Assembly: GCA_964634205.1 (NCBI GenBank)
Contig: CAZWKE010000004.1
Span: forward strand, 26,663-90,662
Length of the DNA: 64,000 nucleotides
Direction of reading: 5' to 3'
From: an uncultured Spirochaetaceae bacterium
Lineage (GTDB): Bacteria > Spirochaetota > Spirochaetia > SZUA-6 > RPPD01
A program made the translations under genes and the position numbers. Position 1 is the first letter of the stretch. Every line of letters starts with the position of its first letter. The notes under the pieces were generated by a model. The model saw only the letters and a list, made by a program, of their open reading frames with translations. It made no database searches and had not been told where the DNA came from. Shown here piece by piece: positions 1 to 25,405 of the stretch.

Positions 1-410
1 CCACTTCATAATTGGCAAGGGACCGTCATCAACATGAAGGTTTGATTTCGTTCATCAAATGCCGCTATGCGATCATAAGCTATGCGTAGTGGCATTTTTT
101 TTAGTTAGTCCGGCCGGGAATCAACCTATTGTCTGACTTTCAGTAGTGGCAAGGAAGGTCAAGGATGTTATCGAGTTCATGGGAGACAAACCGTCCTGCA
201 TATGGTTCGTGAAGCCCGAGACCCTGAATATGTGATACAACTTTTTCCGAAAAATAAGCAGGCCGGTTCCCGCGATGACGGGTGTGCTGTAAGCCTAAAG
301 ACGCACATTATAGCGAGCCCATAGAGGGGAAAGCGATCTTGTTGTACGTGCAGCACTGTGGCACTTCTATCGACTGACGTGCGAACAGATTGTTTCAGCG
401 ACATGACATG

Positions 411-1529
411 TCAAAAATGCGCATTGAATTCGATGGCGATCGGGAGCCAGTATCCGCTTCCATCAGCAAGGGGTTGGGATAGAGGAAAAGCTGTATAAAG
501 CGTGAGGCTCGTCCAATTCCAGATATTGAGATAGACGCCGATCCCGGTTGAGAACAAAAAACCATCCTTGGGATAATAGCAAAAATTATAATACCCGGAA
601 TCGAAAAAGACAAAAACGCCCGGGGTGAAAGAGTAGATAATTTTAAACGCCGGTAGGTTCATCCGGTACTCGATATTCAAGACGCTCTTGAACTGTCCAT
701 CGAACCGCGTGTCTTCATAGCCGCGCACTGCGTATCCTAGACCGTAGCGGGGGTGTAATCCGCCGAAGATCTGCTGGATGTTGATTGGGAGATACCGACC
801 CGTACAATAATCGACCGAGAAGAAAAGGCCGATATAGCCGGAGAGGATGTTGAGTTTGGTCTTGGGGTCAATGTCAAAGAGGGGTAGAAAGGCCTTGGCC
901 GTAGCGTTTAACTGGACAAAATCGGCCATGCCGTAGAGATCGTTCCAGAGCCACTCGGGACCCCAATTGACCGTGGCCTCGACGTAAAAACCGCTAAAGA
1001 GCCGGTGGGGTGAGGTCTTGTCGAGATCGTTATAGTCGAGCCCAAAGAGAAAAGAGTTTTCAAAAATGCCGGGCGCATCCGGGAGGGCGCTCGCAATGAT
1101 GAGCTCATTCTTACTCGAGTCCGGGATGATGTAATCGACACGCGTTTTGTAAAACAAAAAGGCCTGCAGGAGATTGATTTGCAGTTTGTTGTTAAAGATA
1201 AACCCTTGGGCGATGCCGAGGTCTAACCGGGCGTTACAACGCCTGTAATAGGGATCCGTGGAAGGATTAAAGCCTTCGTCGCCCGAATAGAGCCGATTTG
1301 AGGGATCGCGGAAATAGTTCAGCCACTCATACCCGCCGCCGACATAGAGCCAGATCACCGTGTCGGGATTGGGGACTTGAGTCAGGCCGCGAAACCCGAG
1401 GCCGATATCGGCGCCGAACAAACGCAAGCCCAAATCAAAAAGGAGCGGGTCGCGTTCGGCAGAGTCATCGGTATAGCCCGATAATGCAATACATAGAAAT
1501 AGAACAGCGGATAAAATATTACGCAGCAT
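411..1529 (-). CDS. Outer-membrane beta-barrel protein (Omp85/surface-antigen-like barrel, no POTRA region evident)
   Basis: 372 aa. N-terminal hydrophobic signal-like segment (LSAVLFLCIALSG). Alternating aromatic/hydrophilic beta-strand pattern throughout. C-terminal residue is Phe (…EFNAHF), typical of OM barrels. Confidence 0.5.
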   Translation of the reverse strand: MLRNILSAVLFLCIALSGYTDDSAERDPLLFDLGLRLFGADIGLGFRGLTQVPNPDTVIWLYVGGGYEWLNYFRDPSNRLYSGDEGFNPSTDPYYRRCNARLDLGIAQGFIFNNKLQINLLQAFLFYKTRVDYIIPDSSKNELIIASALPDAPGIFENSFLFGLDYNDLDKTSPHRLFSGFYVEATVNWGPEWLWNDLYGMADFVQLNATAKAFLPLFDIDPKTKLNILSGYIGLFFSVDYCTGRYLPINIQQIFGGLHPRYGLGYAVRGYEDTRFDGQFKSVLNIEYRMNLPAFKIIYSFTPGVFVFFDSGYYNFCYYPKDGFLFSTGIGVYLNIWNWTSLTLYTAFPLSQPLADGSGYWLPIAIEFNAHF

Positions 1530-1604
1530 GGTGGTTTCCTTTCAAGATTAATAATGGTGAATTATTGTGATATGTCATGCTAAATCCCACTCTATAGTCC
1601 TTTG

Positions 1605-2465
1605 TCAGCCTTGGCGAAGTACAACAACCAGAACAATGAAAAGGGCTAAAGCCAAACGATAGATGGCAAAGCCGAGAAACGAGTGTCGACGTAAGAATCC
1701 TATCAGAAACTTGATACAAAGCAAGCCGCTTACGGCCGCCGCTAAAAAGCCAATGGGAAAGATTATGAGTTCCTTGCCGGAAAGGGTGGTCGTATGTAAT
1801 TGGGTGATAAAATCAAAAGCGCTCTTCAGGCCGGCACCGGCGATAATCGGTGCCGCCAAAAGAAATGAGAACCGGGCCGCTGTTTGACGTTTTAGCCCGC
1901 AGGCCAGCCCCGCCGTTATCGTCACCCCGGAACGCGAGACGCCCGGGAATATCGCTAAGGCCTGGGCCAATCCGATGATCAACGAGGCGCCTAGTCCGGG
2001 ATTGCCGGGTTTTTGATAGCGTTCAGTGAAACGATCGACAATGAGCAAGATTATCGCCGGTGCCCCTACAGCGCCGGCCATCAGAAGCATTGAAATACCC
2101 GGAATGGGGATGATGTGATAGGCTTCCGTGATTTTTCCCTCAAACAAAAGACCCGCGATACCGCCGGGGATACAGGCGAAAAGCAAAAACCAGGATAGTC
2201 TACGATTTTGATCCGAGCCGATCTTACGCTCGGCTATGCTTTTCACCCACGCGCAGAAGAGCGTTGCCACGTCGCGGCGGAAAAAAATGAGAATGGCCAG
2301 CAAAGTGCCCAGGTGGAGGGCCACGTCGAAGGACAAGCTCGCGATCGTGGGATCAGTCCAGCCAAAAAGCCAGGGAATGATGACGAGGTGGGCCGAGCTG
2401 GAGATCGGCAAGAATTCGGTGATGCCCTGGACGATGCCCAGGGTGATGGACTCAAGAATAACCAT
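1605..2465 (-). CDS. uppP: Undecaprenyl-diphosphatase
   Basis: 286 aa polytopic membrane protein with the UppP/BacA signature GITEFLPISSSAHL near the N-terminus and the second conserved PGVSRSG motif. Confidence 0.9.
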   Translation of the reverse strand: MVILESITLGIVQGITEFLPISSSAHLVIIPWLFGWTDPTIASLSFDVALHLGTLLAILIFFRRDVATLFCAWVKSIAERKIGSDQNRRLSWFLLFACIPGGIAGLLFEGKITEAYHIIPIPGISMLLMAGAVGAPAIILLIVDRFTERYQKPGNPGLGASLIIGLAQALAIFPGVSRSGVTITAGLACGLKRQTAARFSFLLAAPIIAGAGLKSAFDFITQLHTTTLSGKELIIFPIGFLAAAVSGLLCIKFLIGFLRRHSFLGFAIYRLALALFIVLVVVLRQG

Positions 2466-2521
2466 AGGATTTTCTCACGCTTTCTTGTTGCTTCAATTCC
2501 GAACACGATCTAGAACTGACT

Positions 2522-3304
2522 TTATCGCGTACGCGCCAGGTTTGCGGAAAACCAGGACCCCAGTGCGGTCATACGGTTGAAGAACGATTTTTGTTTCAAT
2601 TTCTCAATCCCCAGGAATCGCATTGTATCCGCCATCGTGATCGCGTACACGATTATTTTATCCCGCGTCGGCACGATGAAAAACGAAGTGTGCATCTTCT
2701 TCCTGCCCACTATGGTGAAAATGGCGAAATTAATGTTCGTCAGGTTGACGAGATCGACTTGGTACCAGCCTCCTTTCGTGCTGAAGGAGAAATCGTTGTA
2801 CATGTCGCCGGTCTGCTCCTCCTTCTCGTAGACAACGTAGTGTTTCTCCGTGGGCACAGTGGCCACTACCGGGTCGGGGAGCGGCCTCGTGTCGTGGAGC
2901 GAGGCGACACGATAGGAATCATAGATGAAGGTCTCCATCTTCCGGAGCGACTCAGAGAAGACCTGGAGCCCTTTCATGGCAGTGAAGGCGGTGAAACTCT
3001 TGAAGATCTTCAAGCCTATCTTCTTGTCGTCGGAGGCAGGCGGCCGGTCGATGAGAAAGAGGCTTTCGGCGGCGACGGACACGTCGAGACCCTGTGCCAG
3101 CGCGTTCACGTCGGCGGCAAAGGGGCTGTTCTTCCAAATCGGGAGGTCGGCCGGCTTGTCGCCGATATTGTGGAGTTCGCCCTGCCGGAAAAGCTTGGCG
3201 CAATCAGCCGCGGGCAGAAAGGAGAGGTAGTTCCTGGCGCTCTGTTGGGCGAAAGCGGAAACGGAAACTACGGCGAAAATGAGAATCACTACGGGAATTT
3301 TCAT
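2522..3304 (-). CDS. Hypothetical secreted protein
   Basis: 260 aa with a clear signal peptide (MKIPVVILIFAVVSVSAFAQQ). No family recognised. The overlapping plus-strand ORF 2591..3307 has high-GC antisense-type composition and was not chosen. Confidence 0.5.
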   Translation of the reverse strand: MKIPVVILIFAVVSVSAFAQQSARNYLSFLPAADCAKLFRQGELHNIGDKPADLPIWKNSPFAADVNALAQGLDVSVAAESLFLIDRPPASDDKKIGLKIFKSFTAFTAMKGLQVFSESLRKMETFIYDSYRVASLHDTRPLPDPVVATVPTEKHYVVYEKEEQTGDMYNDFSFSTKGGWYQVDLVNLTNINFAIFTIVGRKKMHTSFFIVPTRDKIIVYAITMADTMRFLGIEKLKQKSFFNRMTALGSWFSANLARTR

Positions 3305-4578
3305 TGATCTTTCCTTTCAGTCTTCGGTTTTGGGCCGCCGAGGGAATCGAGCGTTTCCATCAATGACTCCAAGGCCGACCGGCATTGAGACGACACCGGT
3401 CGCGCCGCGCGCATTTGTCGGAGTACATTGTCGATAAAGCCGTCCACAACCTTCCATTTGTCGGGGGCCATTTCCTGTAGCCGGGCCTGGGCGTCGTCCC
3501 ATGCCGATTCGAGGTCGGTAACCCTTGTTTTGGCATCGTTAAAGCGGCTGGCCTTGAGCAGCCGGAGCGTGTCGTCCGTTATGACGCGAAAGCCGGAGAT
3601 GTCTCCGAGCGGCGCCGTCGGAGACGAGGCGGCCGCGGCCTCGGCGTGGAGGTTATGCTGGCGCAAGGCATATCCCGTGCCGGCAACAATAACGAAAACC
3701 GCAGCCGTGGCCAAAACCTGCCGCAAGACTCTCCTCGGTTTCGGATCGTCGGCAACGCTGGCCTTCGGCTTGGGGATGATATCCTTCTTTGTGAAAGAGA
3801 GGAAAACCACGGTAGCAAGGATGGCGACGAGGAAAATTACGCTGGTAAGTGTCGGTCCCAAGCTCAAGCCGCCCTTAGAGACGGATTGCGAGAGAAAATC
3901 CCCAAGCGAGGCGCCGAGCGGTCGGGTCATGATGTACGCCACCCAGAACGAGAGCACGGCGTCCAGACCGATCCGCCAGGCGATGGCCATCGAGGCAATG
4001 GTACCGAGGACAATGAAACCCGTGACCATGTATCCCAGGCCGAGTCGCTCGGCCATAAGGTCTCCCGCGGCGGTGCCCAGGGCGAAGGTGAAGAGGATGG
4101 CCAGCCAATAAAAGGCCTCGCGTCGGCGGGTAAAAATTGAATGGATGGAAAGTGTTTTTTCAAAGGCGAACCAGATGATGAATGTAATCAGCAGGGCGAC
4201 AGTGAACACGAGCGTGCTCACCTCCAATGGGACGCCCAATTTATCCGTAAGGTTGTCCGTAACGAGCGTTCCGAAGACGCTGATCAAGACCACAGTGAGC
4301 CAATAGATCCCCGAGATGTACTTGTCCGCCCTGAATTGGAAGAATAGTATGGCGGCAAGCAGTATTCCCATCGCGACAGACGTGCCGGTGAGGCCCAAAC
4401 CGAGGTCGACGTTCAGGAAGTCGGAGAAGGTCTCGCCGATCGTCGTGCAGAGGACTTTAATGATCCAAAAGTAAATCGTCACCGCCGGGACTTTGCTGAG
4501 GATAATGCGCGATCGTTTCAGATGTTCTATTTCCATCAATTTCTCCTTGGTAGATAATAATAAAAAGTATGACTCCAT
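3301..4578 (-). CDS. Hypothetical polytopic membrane protein with C-terminal soluble domain
   Basis: 425 aa. Multiple hydrophobic helices in the first ~250 residues (two similar halves), then a charged C-terminal ~150 aa. True start may be an internal Met (MEIEHLK…). No family recognised. Confidence 0.5.
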   Translation of the reverse strand: MESYFLLLSTKEKLMEIEHLKRSRIILSKVPAVTIYFWIIKVLCTTIGETFSDFLNVDLGLGLTGTSVAMGILLAAILFFQFRADKYISGIYWLTVVLISVFGTLVTDNLTDKLGVPLEVSTLVFTVALLITFIIWFAFEKTLSIHSIFTRRREAFYWLAILFTFALGTAAGDLMAERLGLGYMVTGFIVLGTIASMAIAWRIGLDAVLSFWVAYIMTRPLGASLGDFLSQSVSKGGLSLGPTLTSVIFLVAILATVVFLSFTKKDIIPKPKASVADDPKPRRVLRQVLATAAVFVIVAGTGYALRQHNLHAEAAAASSPTAPLGDISGFRVITDDTLRLLKASRFNDAKTRVTDLESAWDDAQARLQEMAPDKWKVVDGFIDNVLRQMRAARPVSSQCRSALESLMETLDSLGGPKPKTERKDQ

Positions 4579-4672
4579 AAAATGAAAAAGACATGAAATT
4601 TTACCGGATTTTTTCTCACGGGCGGGGGTTTTTTTTCATGCCGATTTCATCTTTTAACGTTATCTTTAAAAT

Positions 4673-5362
4673 ATGCGCATTTTGATTGTTGAGGACGAAC
4701 GCAAGATTTCCTCATATGTAAAGCGCGGGTTGAAAGAACTGGGTTATGCTGTCGACGCAGCATTCACCGGGCAGGAAGCGTTGGATATGGCCGCCGTCGT
4801 ATCCTATGATCTCATCGTCCTGGATATCCTGCTGCCGGGAATCGACGGACTCAGCGTGTGCCGCCGGCTGCGAAGGCGGGGCTTGCGTGTTCCGATTCTC
4901 ATGCTCACCGCGCGGGACGCCGTCGACGACCGGGTGGCCGGCCTCGACGCCGGGGCGGACGACTATCTGGTAAAGCCGTTCGCCATGAAAGAGCTACAGG
5001 CCCGTTTGAGAGCCCTCTCTCGGCGAGGGTCCGAACGGCCGAAATCGCCGATGTTCCATATTGCCGATTTGAGCATAGATACCACGACGCGTCGCGTTCG
5101 CAGAGGAGACCGCGCCATCGAGCTGACCGCCAAAGAATACGCGGTATTGGAGTGCCTGATGCGCGAACCGGATCGCGTCTTCACGCGGGCCGTGATCGTC
5201 GAGCACGTCTGGGATTACGACATCTACAATGAATCCAATGTCGTTGATGTGTATATTCGCAACCTGAGGCGCAAGATAGACGACGGGTCAGACGTAAAGC
5301 TGATCCATACCGTCCGGGGGACAGGCTACCGCCTTTGCGCCGGGGACAAGGCCGACCAATGA
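4673..5362 (+). CDS. OmpR/PhoB-family two-component response regulator
   Basis: 229 aa. Receiver motifs (MRILIVEDE…, LDILLPGIDG, LMLTARD) plus a C-terminal winged-helix trans-regulatory domain (…YIRNLRRKID…VRGTGYRL). Confidence 0.9.
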   Translation: MRILIVEDERKISSYVKRGLKELGYAVDAAFTGQEALDMAAVVSYDLIVLDILLPGIDGLSVCRRLRRRGLRVPILMLTARDAVDDRVAGLDAGADDYLVKPFAMKELQARLRALSRRGSERPKSPMFHIADLSIDTTTRRVRRGDRAIELTAKEYAVLECLMREPDRVFTRAVIVEHVWDYDIYNESNVVDVYIRNLRRKIDDGSDVKLIHTVRGTGYRLCAGDKADQ

Positions 5363-6735
5363 CGCTGCGCGTCCGCGTGACCTTGTGGGTTTCAGGGCTG
5401 CTGATCGCGGTCATTGTGGGATTGGGAGCTTTCGTCTACGGCAGTCTCCGGCGGGGATTGGAGGCATCGATCGACGATTCTCTGCGCATCAGTGCCTCGC
5501 AGGTCGATGCCTCCCTCGATATTGAAAATGAAACGATCGATTTCAATGACGCGCCTCAGGAAAATGACGCCCGTACCAGCCTGCATGAGCGCGGGTTGAC
5601 GGTGCGGATCCTTAATCCGGCGGGTAGAGTTCTGGAAGCATTTGGTCCATACCGCGCTCTGCCCGTCGAGTCCGTCGACACGGCGGCTGTCCCGGCGGGC
5701 AAGCCTGTATTTTTGACTGTGCGTGATCCGAAAACCTCCGACAATGTACGGATGTATACGACGCCGATACGCAAAAACAACAGAATAATCGGCTTCATCC
5801 AGGTGGCGCAGAGTCGGAAAGGGATGGAAGACTCTCTGCACCGCCTCCTTTCGGCGCTGCTCTTGGGAGGCCCGCTTCTCGTGCTGCTCGCCGCTCTAGG
5901 CGGTTTCCTCCTCGCCGGCCGTACACTCGCCCCTATCGACCACATCACCCGCACCGTGCGGCGCATCTCCGCCGAAGACCTGGGCGCCAGGCTGAATCTG
6001 CCCGCGACCGATGACGAGGTCGGGCGGCTGGCCGCTACTTTCGACGAAATGCTGGAAAGGCTCGAGGGGGCGTTTCGCCGCGAACGCCGGTTCACCGCTG
6101 ACGCTTCCCACGAGCTGCGCACCCCACTTGCCGCCATGCAGATAATTCTCTCGGTGGTACGGGAGCGACCCCGTTCCGCGGCTGATTATGAACAGGCCCT
6201 GGGCGATATCTCCGACGAAGTCGGTCGGTTACGCGCGCTGTCGGAAGATCTATTGCGGCTGGCGCGCGGTGATACGCGCCGGATCGTCGAACGCGAAAAG
6301 GTCAACTTCTCCGAGTTGCTTAGCGACGTGAGCGATTCACTTCGGCCTTTGGCGGAAGCCAAGGGGGTGGCGCTTGCCTGCTCGGTCACCGAAGGCCTCG
6401 TCCTGCAGGGGGACCGGGATACTTTGATCCGGTTGTTCGTCAATCTCCTTGACAATGCGGTGAAGTTCACCGAACGCGGGTCCATCGAGATTTCCGCCCA
6501 AGCAGATAGGGAATGGATTCTGGCGACGGTCTCCGACACCGGAATCGGCATTCCGGCCGAGCACCTCCCGCATGTTTTAGAGCGATTCTACCGCGTGGAC
6601 AAATCGCGATCCGGGCGGGGAACCGGCCTCGGCCTCTCGATCGCACAGGAAATCGCGCTGTCTCATGGGGGAACGCTCAAGCTGACAAGTGCCCCCGGCA
6701 GGGGGACGACGGCCGTCGTACAGCTGCCGCTATAA
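5359..6735 (+). CDS. Sensor histidine kinase (periplasmic sensor, HAMP, HisKA, HATPase_c)
   Basis: The ATG overlaps the response-regulator stop (ATGA). It has two TM helices flanking a ~140 aa extracytoplasmic region. The H-box is ADASHELRTPL. The N, G1 and G2 boxes are NLLDNAVKF, DTGIGI and GTGLGLSIA. Confidence 0.85.
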   Translation: MTLRVRVTLWVSGLLIAVIVGLGAFVYGSLRRGLEASIDDSLRISASQVDASLDIENETIDFNDAPQENDARTSLHERGLTVRILNPAGRVLEAFGPYRALPVESVDTAAVPAGKPVFLTVRDPKTSDNVRMYTTPIRKNNRIIGFIQVAQSRKGMEDSLHRLLSALLLGGPLLVLLAALGGFLLAGRTLAPIDHITRTVRRISAEDLGARLNLPATDDEVGRLAATFDEMLERLEGAFRRERRFTADASHELRTPLAAMQIILSVVRERPRSAADYEQALGDISDEVGRLRALSEDLLRLARGDTRRIVEREKVNFSELLSDVSDSLRPLAEAKGVALACSVTEGLVLQGDRDTLIRLFVNLLDNAVKFTERGSIEISAQADREWILATVSDTGIGIPAEHLPHVLERFYRVDKSRSGRGTGLGLSIAQEIALSHGGTLKLTSAPGRGTTAVVQLPL

Positions 6736-6749
6736 AATAATCGCCGTTT

Positions 6750-6782
6750 TATTTCATCTGTATTTCATCTGTATTTCATCTC
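6750..6782 (+). promoter_or_regulatory. Three tandem 11-bp direct repeats (TATTTCATCTG x3, last copy ...CTC), directly downstream of the histidine-kinase stop and upstream of the lipoprotein/ABC operon
   Basis: Read directly in the sequence. The 11-bp period (one helical turn) is the classic architecture of OmpR/PhoB-family binding sites. Confidence 0.4.
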
Positions 6783-6849
6783 TGGTGGGGATCTTTTTTA
6801 TAGGGACGGCGTTTAGCCGTCCGTCATCCAAGTGCAAGGAGATGCTCAT

Positions 6850-7461
6850 ATGAAAATTTCCATTCTGCCTACAGCCTTTGTCCTGTGCGCGGCGTTTCTG
6901 TTGCCGGCCGGTTGCGGGAAAGCACCCGCGGCCGCCGGAGGGACGACGGCCTCTTCCGCCGCGACACAAGAGCAGCTTCCCGAGCCGAACAGCTTGGTTG
7001 GCGACATCCCGGACACCCAAGTATTCGTCAGGTATATGTCGAAGGTGGGAAAGTATTCGATCGAAGCGCCCGAAGGATGGGCCAGAACGGAAAACGGCGG
7101 CAATGTGAAGTTTACCGACCACTTCGACGGCGAGGAAGTAAGCCTCAGCGTGAGCGACGCTGCTCCGACGATCGACAGCGTGAAACGTGATCAGACGCCC
7201 GCCCTTCTCGCGAACGGCCGCGCGGTTAAGATTGAGTCCATAAAAAAAGCCGTCCTGGCCAACGGTACGGCTGTCGTTCAGATCATTTATAACTCCGATT
7301 CCGATCCGGATCCGGTGACGGACAAGCATGTACGCCTCTCCGACCTCACGATCCTTTTTTATCACCAAGGCCGACTGGCGGCGCTCACCCTCTGGTCCCC
7401 CAGTGGGGCGGACAATGCCGATCAATGGAAGCGCATTGCCGAGAGCTTCAGATGGCGCTGA
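6850..7461 (+). CDS. Lipoprotein (hypothetical), first gene of the ABC transporter operon
   Basis: Signal peptide plus lipobox (MKISILPTAFVLCAAFLLPAGC). AGGAG RBS-like sequence upstream. Stop overlaps the next gene. Confidence 0.6.
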   Translation: MKISILPTAFVLCAAFLLPAGCGKAPAAAGGTTASSAATQEQLPEPNSLVGDIPDTQVFVRYMSKVGKYSIEAPEGWARTENGGNVKFTDHFDGEEVSLSVSDAAPTIDSVKRDQTPALLANGRAVKIESIKKAVLANGTAVVQIIYNSDSDPDPVTDKHVRLSDLTILFYHQGRLAALTLWSPSGADNADQWKRIAESFRWR

Positions 7462-7462
7462 C

Positions 7463-8128
7463 ATGACGGTACTCAATGCCGAAGAACTGTATCGATTCTA
7501 CCACAGCGGAGAGGAAGAAACAATCGCCCTGCGCGGCGTGAGTCTGACCGTTGAAACCGGAGAGATGACGGCGGTTGTTGGCCCGTCGGGAAGCGGAAAA
7601 TCCACGCTGCTGTCCTGCCTGGCAGGGCTGGATGAACCCGACGGGGGCACTGTGCGTCTCCTGGACCGACGCCTGACACGACGTCCCGAATCCGAAAAGG
7701 CTTTGCTCCGGGCGCGCCATATCGGGATCATGATGCAAACGGGGAACCTCTTCGACCAGCTTACGGTGGGACAAAATATACTCGTCTCCATGCGATTGGC
7801 ACGCGCGGTGGACCGCCGACGGATCGAGACGCTGCTCGATCTGGTGGGCCTCTCCGGGCGGGAGCAGACCCTGCCGACGCGCTTGTCCGGCGGGGAGGCG
7901 GCGCGCGCGGCGCTGGCGGTGGCACTGGCGGCCGATCCGGTTCTTCTCCTTGCCGACGAACCCACCAGTCAGGTGGACGACGAGATGGAGCGGCGGCTCC
8001 TGCGGATGATCGCCCGCTATTGTGAATCAGGCGGAGCGGCGGTGCTCGTGACACATAGTGATGCTGTAGCGGGCGCGGCCCAGTTCATCGTGAAGTTGGT
8101 GGACGGAAAGGTGGTGAGCCATGAGTGA
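7463..8128 (+). CDS. ABC transporter ATP-binding protein (MacB/LolD/FtsE-like family)
   Basis: Walker A GPSGSGKST, signature LSGGEAARAA, Walker B LLLADEPT. Start chosen at the ATG immediately after the lipoprotein stop (the track ORF started earlier, inside the lipoprotein). Confidence 0.85.
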   Translation: MTVLNAEELYRFYHSGEEETIALRGVSLTVETGEMTAVVGPSGSGKSTLLSCLAGLDEPDGGTVRLLDRRLTRRPESEKALLRARHIGIMMQTGNLFDQLTVGQNILVSMRLARAVDRRRIETLLDLVGLSGREQTLPTRLSGGEAARAALAVALAADPVLLLADEPTSQVDDEMERRLLRMIARYCESGGAAVLVTHSDAVAGAAQFIVKLVDGKVVSHE

Positions 8129-8780
8129 CGTTTTGGTCGAGGGCCGGCGCTTGGGACGCAGCTATCGCCGCGGCAAAACGGAGGTCGCGGCGCTCGCAGA
8201 TGTCGATGTCACGGTTCACGCGGGAGACCGCATCGCGGTTGTCGGACCTTCGGGCGGGGGCAAGTCCACCCTCCTGCAATTGATGGGGGGCCTGGACGTT
8301 CCTACTTACGGACGTATCGTATGGCCCGCGCTCGGCGAACGTTCGTCTCTTCGTCCCGGAAAGATCGGTTACGTGTTCCAGACAGAAAGCCTCCTCGCTC
8401 CGCTCTCCGTTTTGGAAAACGTGGAGCTGCCCCTCCTCCTGGCGGGCGAATTGCGGACAGCAGCCCGCTTGCGCGCCCGGGAAGTCATGGAACGGCTTGG
8501 CTTGGAGGCGATCCTGGAAAAGCTACCGGAAGAATTGTCGGGGGGACAAGCGCAGCGCGTGGCCATGGCCCGCGCCCTCGCGGCGAGCCCGCGGTTGATC
8601 CTGGCGGACGAGCCCACCGGCCGGCTTGATCACCCGACGGCCCATCGCCTCTTCGACGTCATACTGGGGGCGCTCACCGCGGACGACACTGCGCTAGTAG
8701 TCGCCACCCACGATATGGCGATCGCGGAGCTTCTGCCGGTACAATGGCGCATTTCGCATGGTCGCCTGGAGGAAACATGA
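8121..8780 (+). CDS. ABC transporter ATP-binding protein (second ATPase of the same family)
   Basis: Walker [10 protein letters not shown], signature [10 protein letters not shown], Walker B ILADEPT. Overlaps the upstream ATPase stop by 8 nt. Confidence 0.85.
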
Positions 8781-11440
8781 TGGGACAGATCGCCGCATGG
8801 TTGAAGGGTACCCTACTACATCAATTCGGCCGCGTTATGGGTGCGGCATTGGGGGTAGCATTGACGGTCGCTTTCATCGCCTCCCTGGGCGCGTTTATGA
8901 CGACGAGCGCTGCCCAGCTGACGCGCAGAGCGGTTCACGACGTGCCGGTGGATTGGCAGGTCCAGATCGCCCCGGGCGCCGACGCGGCATCCGTCCGTTC
9001 CCGGATCGAATCGAGGACGACGGTGTGCCGGCTGGAGCGGGTCGACTACGCTTCGGTGGACGGATTTCGCGCCCGGACGGGCGGTACGGTACAGACTACG
9101 GGCGCGGGCAAGGCCGTCGGTATCGGTGATCATTATTTTCATAGTTTCCCGGCGGAATTGCGGCAGCTGGTGGGAGCTACGCACGGACTGCTGGTCGCCC
9201 AGCAATTGGCGGCCAATCTGCACGTGACGGTGGGGGATACGCTCGAAATCCTCCGTGTCGGGTTGCCCCCGGCAAAGGTGCGCGTGAACGGCGTCGTGGA
9301 CCTGCCGTATGCCGATTCCTTCTTCCAGGCCGTCGGTGTGACGGCGGGACTCGCGCCGCAGGCTCCACCGGACAACGTGGTCATTCTGCCCGAAGCCCTC
9401 TGGGATTCCCTGTTCCGGCAGCAGCAACGCATCAGTCCGGATTCAATACAAACCCAATTCCACCTGCGTCTCGGCCTTTCGCTCCCCGGCGATCCGACGG
9501 CCGCCTATGACAAGGTGAATCGGGAAGTGAAAAAAACGGAGGCGAGGATCGCCGGCGCCGCAATCGTCGCCGATAACTTGGGAACCCGGCTGCTCGCCGT
9601 CAGGGCCGACGCATTGTACGCGCAAGTGCTGTTTCTCTTTCTTGGATTGCCGGGCATGATTCTGGCCGTCCTCCTGACGTTGGCCGGCGCCGCCTCCGGC
9701 GGCCAGCGGCGTGCCGCCGAGCAAGCTCTCTTGCGCACGCGAGGCGCTTCGCCCGCCCGTGTACTGCGAATCCAAGCCTCCGAAGCCGTCATCGTGGGCA
9801 TCGGCGGGCTGGTCGTCGGGGCCGCGCTCACGCTGGCCGCCTCGCGCTGGCTGGGAACCGAAGTCTGGGACCTGTTGCGTTACGGGCCGGGTTGGATCGT
9901 CTTCGCTTCCATTGTCGGGCTGGTTCTCTCGCCGGCGGCCGTCGTCATCCCTGCCTGGCGGGAGTCGCGCCGTTCCACGGTGCTATCGGCTCGCCGGATG
10001 GTAAAGCCTTCCTCCGCTCCGCTGTGGCGGCGATTGTGGCTGGATGCGATCGTTCTGGCGATCGGCGCCGTAGAGTTTTGGCGGACGGCGAGTACGGGCT
10101 ACGCGGTAGTGCTGGCCCCGGAAGGAGTAGCCGCAAGCTCAGTGAATTACGAGGCGTTCATTGCCCCCGTCTGCCTGTGGCTCGGCGGCGTGCTGTTGAG
10201 CGCTCGCCTGTTGGGAGTCGGCCTGAGCCGCGGCCGGCGCGCATTGTCGCGCCTGCTGTCGCCCCTCGCCCGATCTTTGTCGGGAGCGGTCGCCGGGTCC
10301 CTCTCGCGCCGGAAAGGCCTGATGACGCGAGGGACCGTCATGGTCGCCCTGGCCGTCGCCTTTGCCGCGTCCACGGCGGTCTTCGACGCGACCTATAACG
10401 CCCAGTCGCGCGTGGACGCCGAGCTCACCAATGGATCCGACGTAACCGTGACCGGAACAACGGCCGCGCCGCCGAGCGCGAAACTGGCCGAGCTACGCTC
10501 GATTCCCGGCGTCGCGGCCGTCCAACCTATGCAGCACCGCTTCGCCTACGTGGGAAACGATTTGCAGGATTTGTTCGGCATTGATCCCCTCACTATCGGG
10601 GAAGCGACGAAAATTTCCAACGCCTTTTTCGCGGGAGGGAACTCGCGGGAGATGCTGGCCGCCCTGACGCGCATGGACGACGGGGTATTGGTATCTGAAG
10701 AGACGCGTGTCACCTACCAGCTCAACCCAGGCAACCCGCTGAACCTGCGCCTGCAGTCGGCGAAAGACCTTCAGTATCACACGGTGAAGTTCCACGTCGT
10801 GGGGGTCGTGCGCGAGTTCCCCACCGCGCCGAAAGACTCTTTTCTGGTCGTCAACTCGTCCTACCTGGCGCGTGAGACGGCCACCGCCGGCGCGGAGACG
10901 GTACTTATGCGCGTGATGGGCGATCGGAACGCCGTGGCCCGGCGGGCGCGCGCTGTCGTGACCGATCTTCCGGGAGTTAAGGTAACGGACCTGGGATCGG
11001 TGCAGCGGGCGATCAGTTCCAGTCTGACGGCGGTCAGCCTTCAGGGACTGACCCGGCTGGAATTGGCATTTGCCGTACTTCTGGCGGCGGGAGCTGCAGG
11101 ACTGATTCTGGGCTTGGGGCTGTTGGAGAGGCAAAAAATGTTCGCCATTCTCAAGGGGCTGGGCGCCAACGCCCGGCAACTCGGTGCATTTCTTTGGAGT
11201 GAAGCGCTGTTCATGCTCGTTCCGGGGATCATCATCGGCGGACTCCTCGGACTAGGCGTTGCGCAGGTGTTGGTAAAAATATTGACGGGTATTTTCGATC
11301 CTCCTCCTGAAACCCTTACAATTCCCTGGCTGTATCTCGCGATCCTCTGTATCGCAGCCTTCGCCTCGACGGTCGCCGCGGTCGTGACGCTGAGAATATA
11401 CTCGCGCTGTCGGGTGCTGGAAACTCTGCGGGGTCTGTAG
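8777..11440 (+). CDS. ABC transporter permease with two FtsX-like modules (fused MacB-type permease, about 888 aa)
   Basis: One TM helix, a large extracytoplasmic domain and three TM helices, repeated twice (residues ~20-410 and ~420-890). ATGATG start overlaps the ATPase stop. Confidence 0.8.
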   Translation: MMGQIAAWLKGTLLHQFGRVMGAALGVALTVAFIASLGAFMTTSAAQLTRRAVHDVPVDWQVQIAPGADAASVRSRIESRTTVCRLERVDYASVDGFRARTGGTVQTTGAGKAVGIGDHYFHSFPAELRQLVGATHGLLVAQQLAANLHVTVGDTLEILRVGLPPAKVRVNGVVDLPYADSFFQAVGVTAGLAPQAPPDNVVILPEALWDSLFRQQQRISPDSIQTQFHLRLGLSLPGDPTAAYDKVNREVKKTEARIAGAAIVADNLGTRLLAVRADALYAQVLFLFLGLPGMILAVLLTLAGAASGGQRRAAEQALLRTRGASPARVLRIQASEAVIVGIGGLVVGAALTLAASRWLGTEVWDLLRYGPGWIVFASIVGLVLSPAAVVIPAWRESRRSTVLSARRMVKPSSAPLWRRLWLDAIVLAIGAVEFWRTASTGYAVVLAPEGVAASSVNYEAFIAPVCLWLGGVLLSARLLGVGLSRGRRALSRLLSPLARSLSGAVAGSLSRRKGLMTRGTVMVALAVAFAASTAVFDATYNAQSRVDAELTNGSDVTVTGTTAAPPSAKLAELRSIPGVAAVQPMQHRFAYVGNDLQDLFGIDPLTIGEATKISNAFFAGGNSREMLAALTRMDDGVLVSEETRVTYQLNPGNPLNLRLQSAKDLQYHTVKFHVVGVVREFPTAPKDSFLVVNSSYLARETATAGAETVLMRVMGDRNAVARRARAVVTDLPGVKVTDLGSVQRAISSSLTAVSLQGLTRLELAFAVLLAAGAAGLILGLGLLERQKMFAILKGLGANARQLGAFLWSEALFMLVPGIIIGGLLGLGVAQVLVKILTGIFDPPPETLTIPWLYLAILCIAAFASTVAAVVTLRIYSRCRVLETLRGL

Positions 11441-11888
11441 TACGGTTCTCGACCGAACGCCGCATTTGCGACGCCGGAAATATCGCCGGAAGCGATAATG
11501 TGATTTTATTGAACTACAAGATTTCACTATTGGAATGCAAGTAGAGTTGGATGAGATGTATCTTCCGTTGGTGGAAAGTGATAATTACAAACGTTGTGCG
11601 CATCAGTGTGCACTCTATTAACACTCGCCTTGCAGTAATTCTAAATCCGGCAAAACGGTACTAATCTGAAAAAGCGAGCTGAGTGAACATTTTAGAATCT
11701 GAGATTGTGATATCAAGAGGCAACGTCGTTTCCATTATTATTTTCACTATTAATAACTCACATGAAATCTAAAAAAGATACGAATTAGGGTTGCCTTAGT
11801 AAAAATGGCTTTTACAGGGAACAAATTTAAAATTGCAGGTAATGCCCTTTGTCTTAGCCTCCGAAGATGTAGATAAGGAGCGTTTTAT

Positions 11889-12380
11889 ATGAAGGAACTG
11901 AAGCTATTTATCAAAGATATGCAGAATGAGGCGGCCCTGCTGAAAGAGTTTGCCGAGCTTGAAGATCAGATGCAGTTGTGTGCGGGTGAGAACAGGTGGG
12001 AGGATATTGAGCGGGTGATCGGTGAGCTGAAAGGAAAGGCGGGGACATTAAACAGTATTGAGGAATGCCGCTGCGCTTCTTTTGATGCCCTGAAGAAAAA
12101 ACTGGGGTTACCTTGCGAGACCGGATTTTTAAAACTGCTGCCCATTGTACCGGTAACCGAACGGGAACGACTGCTTAGCGCGTACAGAAAACTGAAGGTA
12201 GCGGTTTTTTCGGTCAAAGGGGCAACCACGCGTCTGACCTATTATTTCAGGTCCATGGAGGGCTCGTTCAAAAAGGTCCTGGGCGAGTTGTTCCCCCACA
12301 GGAAGGGCAAGATCTATTCCAAGGACGGCAGACCCAAGAAGGTTCCCGACGACGCCCTGTTATTAAATAAGCACTTATAG
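11889..12380 (+). CDS. Putative flagellar export chaperone (FlgN-like) upstream of flgK
   Basis: 163 aa helical, acidic protein immediately 5' of flgK-flgL, which is the conserved position of FlgN. Assignment is by position and size only. Confidence 0.35.
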   Translation: MKELKLFIKDMQNEAALLKEFAELEDQMQLCAGENRWEDIERVIGELKGKAGTLNSIEECRCASFDALKKKLGLPCETGFLKLLPIVPVTERERLLSAYRKLKVAVFSVKGATTRLTYYFRSMEGSFKKVLGELFPHRKGKIYSKDGRPKKVPDDALLLNKHL

Positions 12381-24631: not shown

Positions 24632-25405
24632 ATGAAAAAGAAAACTGTTGCAATTATCATGCTGATTTTATCGGGTTATTTTTTGTACGCGGACGGTCTT
24701 AAAAATTTTGAAGATGTGTTGAGTGCCCAGATTCTGCAAAACCTTTCCCAATATGGGGAGTTAAAGAATACATTTGATGATAAGGTACACCTGCGCTATT
24801 TTCCGGATGTGAAGCTGCGGGAAGTGATTAAGAAGCAGATCAGGCAACTTAAGCCCATCTTTGGGATCGAGGTCCTGCTGACCTATAAAATGAAAGGAAA
24901 GGATTTTTCCGCTGAAAAGCAGCGCCTGGCCCTGTATAATATTCTGCGTTCCATCAGTACCTTGAAGGGAATTCAATACTATTCCCAAAGTCGCGGTCGT
25001 ATGCGCATAATGTTCCACGACGCCTACATCGTTGATTCCCCGGACACAAAGAAAAAACTGCCGGACCGCCTGGTGGATATAATCCCGGCCTACAGTACGC
25101 TGTATATCTACCAGGACGATTCCTCGTTCGGACAGAATATCTTTGAGACCGTCTATTACGCAGAGGACGGGTATTTCTTAATGAAAATGGAAAATCTCAC
25201 CAAGATCTGGTACGGGATCATCCCCCTGATAGATCCCCATCACCTGAATTATATCATTTTTATCTATCCCAAAGGAGATACCATTCTGTTTTACTCGGTG
25301 GTGTGTGTGAATGCCTTTAATCTTTTCGGCATCGCGGAAAGCAGAACGGCTTCTTTTTACAACAGGATAAAGGCCCTCTATGCCTGGTTTCTTTCCCAAC
25401 TGTAA
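24632..25405 (+). CDS. Hypothetical secreted protein
   Basis: 257 aa, signal peptide MKKKTVAIIMLILSGYFLYADG. No family recognised. Confidence 0.5.
   Translation: MKKKTVAIIMLILSGYFLYADGLKNFEDVLSAQILQNLSQYGELKNTFDDKVHLRYFPDVKLREVIKKQIRQLKPIFGIEVLLTYKMKGKDFSAEKQRLALYNILRSISTLKGIQYYSQSRGRMRIMFHDAYIVDSPDTKKKLPDRLVDIIPAYSTLYIYQDDSSFGQNIFETVYYAEDGYFLMKMENLTKIWYGIIPLIDPHHLNYIIFIYPKGDTILFYSVVCVNAFNLFGIAESRTASFYNRIKALYAWFLSQL

Follow-up and report, generated by a model that had tools for sequence, protein, structure and literature searches.

The stretch of DNA analyzed here, a window of 64,000 nucleotides from an uncultured Spirochaetaceae bacterium (contig CAZWKE010000004.1 of assembly GCA_964634205.1), carries at positions 411 to 11440 a ten-gene, two-operon envelope module, of which the part from about 2522 to 11440 is likely foreign to this genome. 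Rightward genes encode an OmpR-type response regulator (RR), a sensor histidine kinase (HK), a lipoprotein, two different ABC ATPases and a fused permease with two FtsX stretches. Leftward genes encode a DUF347 membrane protein, a secreted DUF6675 protein, the undecaprenyl-pyrophosphate phosphatase BacA/UppP and an Omp85-like secreted protein (Table 1). The lipoprotein-ATPase-ATPase-permease core, hereafter the cassette, is a compact and uncharacterized type VII ABC family. To the right of an AT-rich gap, the window continues with a FlgN-like gene, FlgK, FlgL, FliW and TsaB and then with ordinary chromosomal genes of an anaerobic-spirochete type, including UvrB, MurG, HtrA and an FeFe hydrogenase.

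An earlier sequence-only reading had described the region as a horizontally acquired island with an OmpR-type two-component system (TCS), a lipoprotein and a MacB-like exporter beside flagellar genes. Its gene content stands, i.e., the OmpR-type RR, a HAMP/HisKA kinase, the lipoprotein, two ABC ATPases, the double-FtsX permease and the adjoining flagellar genes, and the long antisense open reading frames (ORFs) that it reported in the block are present. The coordinates of the lipoprotein gene and the starts of the ATPase 1, HK and permease genes had to be amended to those in Table 1 (the true permease start lies 11 codons downstream of the start of an 898-aa ORF). The description as a self-contained module was too narrow, since these genes appear to be co-regulated and are co-conserved with DUF347, DUF6675, UppP and the Omp85-like gene.

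Table 1. Features of the module and its junctions (positions of the window; aa, amino acids).
Feature	Position	Strand	Remarks
Omp85-like secreted protein, 372 aa	411..1529	-	final gene of leftward string
BacA/UppP undecaprenyl-pyrophosphate phosphatase	1605..2465	-	Pfam BacA 1.1e-74
DUF6675 secreted protein	2522..3304	-	Pfam DUF6675 4.8e-41
DUF347 (COG4705) polytopic membrane protein	3301..4536	-	Pfam DUF347 3.6e-58, four repeats
Divergent control region, 136 bp, 31% GC	4537..4672		two mirrored TTTCAT-N5-TTTCAT direct-repeat boxes
TTTCAT-N5-TTTCAT box	4582-4598	-	reads ATGAAA-N5-ATGAAA on plus strand
TTTCAT-N5-TTTCAT box	4634-4650	+	exact match
OmpR/PhoB-family RR	4673..5362	+	Pfam Response_reg, Trans_reg_C
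Sensor HK	5359..6735	+	Pfam HAMP, HisKA, HATPase
Three tandem TTTCAT hexamers, 11-bp spacing	6752..6779	+	HK-lipoprotein gap; candidate RR box for ABC genes
PsbP/Mog1-fold lipoprotein, 203 aa	6850..7461	+	signal peptide, then ...LLPAGC
ABC ATPase 1, 221 aa	7463..8128	+	Pfam ABC_tran
ABC ATPase 2, 219 aa	8121..8780	+	paralog of ATPase 1, 38% identical
Fused double-FtsX permease, 887 aa	8777..11440	+	Pfam FtsX 3e-17, two stretches
Orphan AT-rich junction DNA, 382 bp	11441..11822		right-hand synteny breakpoint within

Gene neighborhood and the TTTCAT boxes

The genes of the module are probably functionally linked, as all ten occur together, in another order, at the distant locus L156. There, a single strand carries genes for PepSY, RR, HK, BacA, DUF6675, the lipoprotein, two ATPases, the permease, DedA, DUF347 and an Omp85-like protein (0.54-0.62 guanine-cytosine [GC] content, with flanks of 0.36-0.48), and the DedA/VTT gene (10765-11382; PF09335, 2.5e-22) lies between those for the permease and DUF347. 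With a set of neighbor proteins as tblastn queries, we examined 73 unique homologous loci and counted neighbors within 7 kb of the permease in the 30 loci with at least 6 kb of upstream and at least 4 kb of downstream sequence. In this subset, a lipoprotein gene directly precedes the ATPases in 29 of 30 loci, an OmpR-type RR and HK are found in 21, DUF347 in seven (14 of all 73 unique loci) and BacA or a PAP2 phosphatase in five. Extra queries revealed PAP2 genes in L106, L127, L163 and L177, DedA/VTT genes in L101, L149 and L156, and PepSY genes in about 20 loci, and BacA lies beside the cassette in L102, L151, L156 and L167. The order at L089 (Armatimonadota) is DUF347-DUF347-lipoprotein-ATPase-ATPase-permease-PepSY-RR-HK-PAP2.

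All four exact TTTCAT-N5-TTTCAT matches in the 64-kb window fall into the two intergenic regions of the module, and with up to one mismatch there are five matches as compared to 0.9 +/- 0.9 expected. The boxes of the divergent region are unchanged in L173 and in L171, a contig (CAZWYY010000048 of assembly GCA_964638895.1) from the metagenome-assembled genome (MAG) of a sister species. In more distant modules, a plus-strand box is found 56-58 bp upstream of the RR start (L004, L176 and L177; 39 bp in the window), a minus-strand box 111-112 bp upstream of the same start (L004 and L176; 91 bp in the window) and another box 71-89 bp upstream of the lipoprotein gene (L004, L176 and L177; 87 and 98 bp in the window). 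Of the 37 hits with up to one mismatch in 1.18 Mb of sequence from module loci, 18 are located no more than 260 bp upstream of an RR or lipoprotein gene. The usual operator form of OmpR/PhoB regulators are direct repeats with a periodicity of about 11 bp. We thus consider it fairly likely that the TTTCAT repeats are binding sites of the regulator, which would then control its own expression as well as the ABC genes and the divergent operon. Since a PepSY gene takes the place of DUF347 as the divergent gene in L004 and L177, the accessory genes seem to be exchangeable behind a shared operator. A one-mismatch match (TTTCAT-N5-TTTCCT, 3299-3315 on the plus strand) sits exactly on the junction of the DUF347 and DUF6675 genes and could be due to chance or an internal regulatory site.

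DUF347 is the leading gene of the leftward operon (its start was taken from the gene call on L001, a contig that covers the same DNA), and DUF6675 overlaps its stop by 4 bp, which places both in one operon. The DUF6675 gene of the block has a GC content of 0.547 and a GC content at third codon positions (GC3) of 0.75, is 93% identical in L171 and is also part of the L156 cluster. A second DUF6675 gene of the window (24632-25405, plus strand; Pfam 1e-65) lies between murG and the gene of a GGDEF response regulator and has host-like composition (GC 0.435, GC3 0.57); the two are paralogs with different histories. The final gene of the string encodes a protein with an N-terminal signal-like segment that matches NCBIfam Omp85_fam at E 4e-9, far under the cut-off, and gave no Pfam or PDB sequence matches; it is a candidate outer-membrane beta-barrel. 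A 31%-identical homolog forms the end of the L156 cluster.

Further left, positions 1-122 of the window match L171 11808-11928 (92.6% identity), and between this match and BacA the sister MAG carries OEP and ACR_tran (resistance-nodulation-division, RND) genes, each in two fragments and thus possible pseudogenes. Because the Omp85-like gene replaces these OEP/RND genes in the window, the left flank is a variable region.

The lipoprotein-ABC core and its relatives among known systems

The permease could be modeled with AlphaFold2 as a protein with 10 transmembrane (TM) helices and two alpha/beta periplasmic domains at residues 60-266 (between TM1 and TM2) and 556-750 (between TM7 and TM8). The best Foldseek match of this model is E. 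coli YbbP (9ge6/9ge7; E 1.6e-21, TM-score about 0.5, end-to-end alignment), followed by BceB, LolE/C, MacB, YtrF and HrtB, and all matches at E<=1e-7 are type VII permeases. Both FtsX domains and, in the model, a large periplasmic domain between TM1 and TM2 on long helices are present as is characteristic of type VII systems, and a YbbP-like type VII (MacB-superfamily) architecture is therefore highly probable. The confidence of the model is moderate (predicted local distance difference test [pLDDT] 69, predicted TM-score 0.53), which weighs against this assignment, and a PDB sequence search with the permease gave no match at E<=1. The family is compact: of 1.84 billion representatives, 376 clusters at 50% identity reach E<=1e-30, and its full-length members have 880-920 aa.

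The Walker A, LSGGE/Q, Walker B (with catalytic Glu) and H-loop motifs are all intact in both ATPases. Their order is fixed in 30 of 30 testable loci, i.e., the distal gene is always the ATPase 1 ortholog and the proximal one the ATPase 2 ortholog, with orthologs 57-58% and paralogs 36% identical across loci. Together, fixed paralog order and intact motifs predict that an obligate heterodimer with two competent sites is a trait of the family. The best NCBIfam scores of the ATPases are to LolD, FtsE, DevA and MacB.

A model of the lipoprotein (AlphaFold2 with 28 homologs; pLDDT 80.6) matches cyanobacterial and plant PsbP/CyanoP best (E 3e-7, TMt 0.68), followed by SciW and EagT6 (Eag chaperones that hold transmembrane helices) and then by DcrB and mycobacterial LpqN. 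The Pfam PsbP score is slightly sub-threshold (21 bits), some sources name homologs "PsbP-related", and a PDB sequence search gave only noise. The lipoprotein is a candidate periplasmic partner of the transporter, as is typical of type VII ABC systems, in which the partner sets the function and many of which extract lipid-like substrates from the outer leaflet (cited sections of PMC12646458).

Among known systems, YbbAP-TesA of E. coli (PDB 9GE6-9GE8; cited sections of PMC12646458) shares the fused 10-TM permease with periplasmic domains between TM1-2 and TM7-8 and a periplasmic partner encoded next to the transporter. However, the permeases are only 15% identical, and the YbbP hidden Markov model NF041854 scores 25.8 bits against a cut-off of 999. 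YbbAP-TesA further differs by having a single ATPase, YbbA, instead of two different ATPase genes, and the SGNH hydrolase TesA as partner instead of a PsbP-fold lipoprotein (no hydrolase was found in the cluster), and by lacking the TCS to which the cassette is usually tied. The term "MacB-like" of the sequence-only reading is consequently right at the level of the superfamily, shared with MacAB-TolC and LolCDE (FtsX domain, Porter/Sabre-like periplasmic domains and LolD/MacB-like ATPases), but not for the architecture, which is YbbP-like. The permeases of MacB and LolCDE are 4-TM units that form homo- or heterodimers, and MacB, with its N-terminally fused ATPase domain, depends on MacA and TolC, whereas the cassette has a fused 10-TM permease and separate ATPase genes. 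The MacB equivalog model is matched by the ATPases only (140-145 bits, cut-off 966), and those of LolC/E (TIGR02212, 18.4 bits, cut-off 362) and LolD (TIGR02211, 151-195 bits, cut-off 308) are also far from their thresholds. In the literature that we searched, which did not include subscription-only papers, no characterization of the cassette was found.

Composition, origin and age of the block

The GC-rich block and its genes are real. Its GC content is 60.8% over 3300-11460, 62.1% over 4673-11440 and 63.4% over 6850-11440 as compared to 48.5% for the remainder of the window (11889-64000), and 454 host windows of the size of the block average 48.8% (standard deviation 2.3%) with a maximum of 53.6%. 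In sliding windows, GC stays at 0.58-0.71 from about 4.65 to 11.25 kb, forming a plateau. The figure of 62-65% given by the sequence-only reading applies from about 7.3 to 11 kb and not elsewhere in the block, and its range of 40-52% for everything downstream is exceeded by 1-kb windows of up to 0.57. The sharp break that it had seen at 11.44-11.89 kb is genuine, with GC dropping from about 0.60 to 0.36-0.39 across the gap at 11441-11888 (0.388 for the whole gap). Between 59000 and 64000, the window deviates in the opposite direction: GC is only 0.35-0.43 per kb in this tail, with a GC3 of 0.42-0.44, and the genes there encode an acyltransferase, a receiver-domain protein and CinA.

Other signatures agree with this picture. 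Tetranucleotide z-score profiles, which had been proposed as a check, correlate at 0.45 between the block and the remainder of the window versus 0.70 +/- 0.05 (minimum 0.59) for 16 host chunks of the same size. A leave-one-out likelihood test of synonymous codons, which is independent of amino-acid content, classified eight genes (those for DUF6675, DUF347, the RR, the HK, the lipoprotein, the two ATPases and the permease) as "block" and 42 of 42 other genes as "host", with BacA neutral and the Omp85-like gene weakly block-like. By this criterion, the atypical stretch extends over 2522-11440 and begins with DUF6675 instead of at 3300 as initially proposed. The GC3 of its genes had been called extreme but is merely raised (0.69-0.75 versus 0.42-0.70 in the host), and GC1 and GC2 are elevated to the same degree because Ala, Val, Arg, Leu and Gly are abundant in the encoded proteins, whereas Lys, Ile and Asn are scarce.

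A sharp compositional step that coincides with an AT-rich gap of which the first 382 bp have no homolog elsewhere could in principle result from an assembly or binning chimera, i.e., from fusion of a contig of a GC-rich organism to a spirochete contig at 11.4-11.9 kb. However, L001 (window 2251-11657), L002 (5602-11973) and L003 (5602-11761), which are contigs of two Logan runs and one Joint Genome Institute assembly and hence stem from at least two sequencing runs, match the window at 99.9-100% identity and together span 2251-11973. A chimera is excluded because these three other assemblies cross both junctions, which also settles the concern about chimerism raised by the sequence-only reading. 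In addition, DUF6675, BacA and DNA homologous to window 1-122 are linked to the block in the sister MAG, and a DUF6675 gene of spirochete type lies inside the block, leaving a chimera with a practically negligible probability.

The distribution of the cassette argues for a foreign, GC-rich origin of the block, which we regard as likely. The nearest modules outside the clade, by permease identity, are L176 (73%), L004 (71%), L177 (70%) and L091/L092 (67%), all with about 0.64 GC and in non-syntenic contexts; flanks have 0.56-0.64 GC in L176, L177 and L092, and those of L004 have 0.53, with GC changing sharply at either end and genes for IS200-type transposases in the vicinity. Homologs with 55-65% identity (55-61% for the named ones) are found in Armatimonadota, Chloroflexota (Ktedonobacteraceae) and Firmicutes (Desulfosporosinus), and searches with the lipoprotein add Paenibacillus, Cohnella, Clostridiales and Chroococcidiopsis. 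Moreover, 34 plasmids in PLSDB encode the permease at 52-57% identity, including 13 conjugative and 6 mobilizable ones, in at least 10 genera (among them Chroococcidiopsis, Paraburkholderia, Rhizobium, Mesorhizobium, Bradyrhizobium, Agrobacterium, Deinococcus, Rhodococcus, Mycolicibacterium and Streptomyces).

Alternatively, the region could be native, with its high GC explained by the intrinsic Ala/Gly/Arg/Val/Leu-rich composition and the codon preferences of membrane proteins. The equal elevation of GC1, GC2 and GC3 is in line with this view, as are the lack of mobility signatures and the presence of a block of like composition in the sister species, where it is as conserved as flagellar genes. 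We compared core and flank GC at 41 unique loci for which 4 kb or more of distant flank was available. GC is higher in the core than in the flanks in 36 of 41 (median +0.040; Wilcoxon p = 5e-9), so that part of the signal is no evidence of transfer. However, the fit (core GC = 0.80 x flank GC + 0.147, r = 0.89) predicts a core GC of 0.54 for the flank of 0.485 seen here, and the observed value is 0.634. Of roughly 15 extra GC points, about 4-5 are thus a property of the family and about 10 are not accounted for by it, and the excess of approximately +0.15 lies above all 41 loci. High GC is also not obligatory for the cassette given cores of 0.46-0.47 in L103, L111 and L133. Synonymous codon usage and the tetranucleotide signature deviate independently of amino-acid content, the nearest homologs reside in GC-rich or unrelated contexts and on plasmids, and a DUF6675 paralog of host composition exists in the same window. 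A native origin fits the codon, tetranucleotide and distribution data poorly, and we consider it improbable.

Several observations nevertheless count against acquisition. Compositional enrichment of the cassette in most genomes has been mentioned. No integrase, transposase, tRNA or bounding repeats were found within the window: there is no integrase or transposase among its annotated genes, no tRNA or transfer-messenger RNA, no Rfam match at gathering thresholds across its whole length, and the repeat pairs reported around the block, direct or inverted, are all short and chance-like and do not bracket it. Furthermore, the comparison contigs mostly lack a taxonomic label. Finally, the block is shared by the closest relative, so that presence or absence lends no direct support to transfer at that depth. 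Among the common hallmarks of genomic islands, the block thus displays atypical composition, oligonucleotide and codon usage, patchy distribution, carriage on mobile elements and varied contexts, but not absence from the closest relatives or mobility genes, tRNAs and flanking repeats.

The host relatives show how old the block must be and how its edges have changed. All relatives of FlgK come from Spirochaetales/Spirochaetaceae MAGs, with 89% identity for L005 and 81% for L006 and L007, and the order flgN-flgK-flgL-fliW-tsaB-EAL-ntrC is kept in all three. The contig L171 belongs to the same MAG as L005 and carries ATPase1-lipoprotein-HK-RR next to DUF347-DUF6675-BacA, and it ends inside ATPase 2; its DNA is 90.6% identical to window 1819-8263, that of L173 is 94% identical over 2349-9162, and the block is also present in L172. 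Identities of the L171 proteins (HK 97%, lipoprotein 95%, ATPase 1 93%, DUF6675 93%, RR 88% and DUF347 86%) equal or exceed those of flagellar proteins in L005 (FlgK 89%, FlgL 85%, FliW 91%), from which we conclude that the block predates the species split; acquisition before that split is very probable on these identities. The top matches of the DUF347 protein have 94, 87 (on L171) and 83% identity, and the next ones only about 62% (Acidobacteriota, Myxococcota and Paenibacillus).

The sequence-only reading held that relatives carrying the same block with native composition would speak against transfer. The block is indeed present in L171 but is equally anomalous there, its GC being 0.59 whereas the remainder of the contig has 0.49 and L005 has 0.50. 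The proposed horizontally acquired island is thus upheld as far as a likely foreign, GC-rich origin is concerned but is neither recent nor cleanly bounded. Alignment of the three copies in the window, L173 and L171 (pairwise identities of 95.2, 93.1 and 95.9%; GC of the copies 0.58-0.59) did not resolve the tree. Substitution polarity with this tree and no host control shows an excess of GC-to-AT changes only on the short L173 branch (45:8). L005 has 0.50 GC like the window, while L006 and L007 (FlgK 81%) have 0.41-0.42, and this fast shift of genome GC within the clade complicates amelioration arguments.

At the right edge, homology to L005 restarts at window 11823 (L005 9433). The DNA between the block and this point contains a hairpin resembling a terminator (11481-11497) and, on the minus strand, a promoter-like site (11716-11689) and has no homolog in any relative or module locus. 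Upstream of flgN, L005-L007 carry other genes; L005 and L007 share eight of them in synteny, and the whole window contains none of these. A clean insertion, for which a synteny comparison had been proposed as a check, was therefore rejected, and this edge is a lineage-specific rearrangement junction instead of a clean side of an insertion since the genes upstream of flgN in the relatives are missing from the window. At the left edge, the first 50 aa of BacA are 90% identical to the sister copy (L171 5789-6643) and the remainder only about 55%, with a GC of 0.537 in the window versus 0.613 in the sister. This suggests that BacA is a mosaic in which recombination with a junction near position 2316 replaced most of the original uppP of the island.

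Candidate functions of the module

As the best overall explanation, we favor, by a modest degree, that the module is an old, horizontally acquired and vertically retained envelope-stress module. A cassette of about 64% GC would have been acquired from a GC-rich donor by an ancestor of the spirochete lineage (about 49% GC) before the species split and inherited vertically since, with its edges reshuffled into the mosaic BacA on the left and the orphan junction by the flgK operon on the right. The kinase would sense a periplasmic or envelope cue, and the phosphorylated regulator would bind the TTTCAT-N5-TTTCAT direct repeats to activate its own operon together with the lipoprotein-ABC genes and the divergent operon of DUF347, DUF6675 and UppP. 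The heterodimeric ATPase would then drive mechanotransmission in the permease, which, with the lipoprotein docked on its periplasmic domains, might act at the outer face of the cytoplasmic membrane to extract or free a hydrophobic or lipid-linked molecule, and the co-induced DUF347, DUF6675 and UppP proteins might restore the lipid-carrier pool. What the analysis shows are the anatomy, the conservation and the motif, from which we infer all of these steps.

UppP and PAP2 enzymes dephosphorylate undecaprenyl pyrophosphate (PMC5861054), and DedA proteins are flippases of undecaprenyl phosphate (C55-P) according to the cited part of PMC12893004. Because UppP, PAP2, DedA, DUF347 and PepSY recur beside the cassette, we tentatively place its substrate in the undecaprenyl-(pyro)phosphate carrier cycle, though a link to carrier stress is possible rather than probable given that UppP, PAP2 or DedA neighbors are found in only around 15-20% of loci.

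What the TCS responds to is a second point of discussion. The HK has TM helices at residues 7-25 and 167-185 with a periplasmic domain of about 140 aa in between, and the best family-level matches of both HK and RR lie in the CusRS/CopRS/RppAB/HprSR clade, under the curated cut-offs (HK, TIGR01386, 269.2 bits, cut-off 292.55; RR, cztR_silR_copR [TIGR01387], 254.1 bits, cut-off 279.2, with RppA next). The module could thus serve in metal stress, with a TCS that senses metals such as Cu, Ag, Ni or Pb in the periplasm and ABC, DUF347 and UppP proteins that export or precipitate the metal. These heavy-metal sensors (followed by RppAB and HprR) as best NCBIfam matches speak for this possibility and against the favored explanation, and PAP2 and PepSY neighbors would fit phosphate precipitation of the PbrB kind. 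Likewise, operons of UppP and DUF347 are induced by lead in Frankia, and DUF347 has been proposed to be a metal exporter (PMC4531530).

However, both TCS matches stay under curated cut-offs, and across 30 orthologs the sensor domain has no conserved His, Cys or Met, i.e., none of the metal ligands expected of the CusRS/CopRS clade; residues conserved in at least 80% are Y27, D39, L42, A46, G79, G89, R131, Q148 and L160. The box found here, TTTCAT-N5-TTTCAT, is a further difference from that clade. Among the genes annotated around the cassette, here and in the other contexts examined, none encodes a P-type ATPase, CusCBA/Czc, CopA/B/C/D or a metallochaperone, and the type VII ABC systems characterized to date act on lipids, lipoproteins, peptides or partner proteins instead of ions, according to the cited sections of PMC12646458. 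Overall, a metal-stress module appears unlikely.

An efflux or trafficking machine that spans the envelope like MacAB-TolC or LolCDE, with a peptide, drug or lipoprotein substrate passing via the PsbP-fold lipoprotein to the Omp85-like protein, would agree with the top scores of the ATPases (LolD, FtsE, DevA and MacB), with the Omp85-like or BamA/TamA genes that accompany the cassette in the window, in L156 and on the plasmid pCHRO.01, and with the OEP and RND genes beside the block in the sister species. Yet no MacA/HlyD-type adaptor was found in the window or the contexts examined (no gene of window 1-16 kb has an HlyD/adaptor domain), an Omp85-like partner is found in only 1 of the 73 survey loci, and the LolCE and MacB equivalog models are far under threshold. 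The cassette is also common in monoderm Firmicutes and Actinobacteria, which have no outer membrane. Overall, such a machine is very unlikely. Independently of these readings, a role in anti-phage defense was rejected, as PADLOC gave generic ATPase and receiver-domain matches only.

Returning to envelope stress, the Bce modules (BceAB-BceRS; PMC11009047, PMC9169098) resemble the cassette by coupling an FtsX-type 10-TM permease to an OmpR-type TCS. BceB is the next-best structural match of the permease after YbbP, and Bce modules have a connection to undecaprenyl pyrophosphate that the UppP, PAP2 and DedA neighbors suggest for the cassette as well. However, BceB lacks the first of the two periplasmic domains modeled for the cassette permease, Bce modules have one ATPase gene and no lipoprotein partner as opposed to two ATPase genes and a lipoprotein, and BceS is an intramembrane-sensing kinase without a periplasmic domain, unlike the HK of the cassette with its roughly 140 periplasmic residues and HAMP domain. 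Bce modules are those of Firmicutes, whereas the cassette family is not confined to this phylum. BcrAB is of a different, non-FtsX ABC type. Bacitracin-resistance operons bcrABD(R) (PMC3435297) can be likened to the module by gene content, not sequence, as both combine a mobile ABC transporter, a UppP homolog and a regulator, though the bcr regulator is not a TCS.

If the carrier-cycle link holds, the module would be a functional analog of Bce and bcrABD protection from antibiotics that sequester carrier lipids. The antimicrobial-peptide reading of the sequence-only analysis is a plausible hypothesis. More speculatively, and less likely than not, the cassette might represent a fifth functional class of type VII ABC machine that is pan-bacterial and plasmid-spread, controlled by a CopRS-like TCS via TTTCAT boxes and serving the undecaprenyl-(pyro)phosphate cycle with UppP/PAP2, DedA and DUF347 as the counterpart of Bce outside Firmicutes. 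A true link to undecaprenyl phosphate would extend Bce-like sensing and protection beyond Firmicutes in the form of a mobile resistance determinant, and the carrier-cycle reading would give DUF347 and DUF6675 their first functional context.

The transfer event itself is routine, i.e., an old, ameliorating island in an uncultured sediment spirochete, and the value lies in the family with its length-conserved permease (about 885 aa), fixed four-gene core, new kind of periplasmic partner and recognizable operator. Its members, annotated only as "FtsX-like permease family protein" or "hypothetical", are found in culturable Agrobacterium, Rhizobium, Paraburkholderia, Paenibacillus, Chroococcidiopsis, Deinococcus and Streptomyces, and the hypothesis is open to genetic testing in model rhizobia. 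On the conjugative Chroococcidiopsis plasmid pCHRO.01 (L175; 2647-9646 and 10979-12773), the cassette lies behind a BamA/TamA-family gene and ahead of two transposase genes and an rppB kinase gene that looks truncated, which may be the remains of a disrupted TCS beside the cassette.

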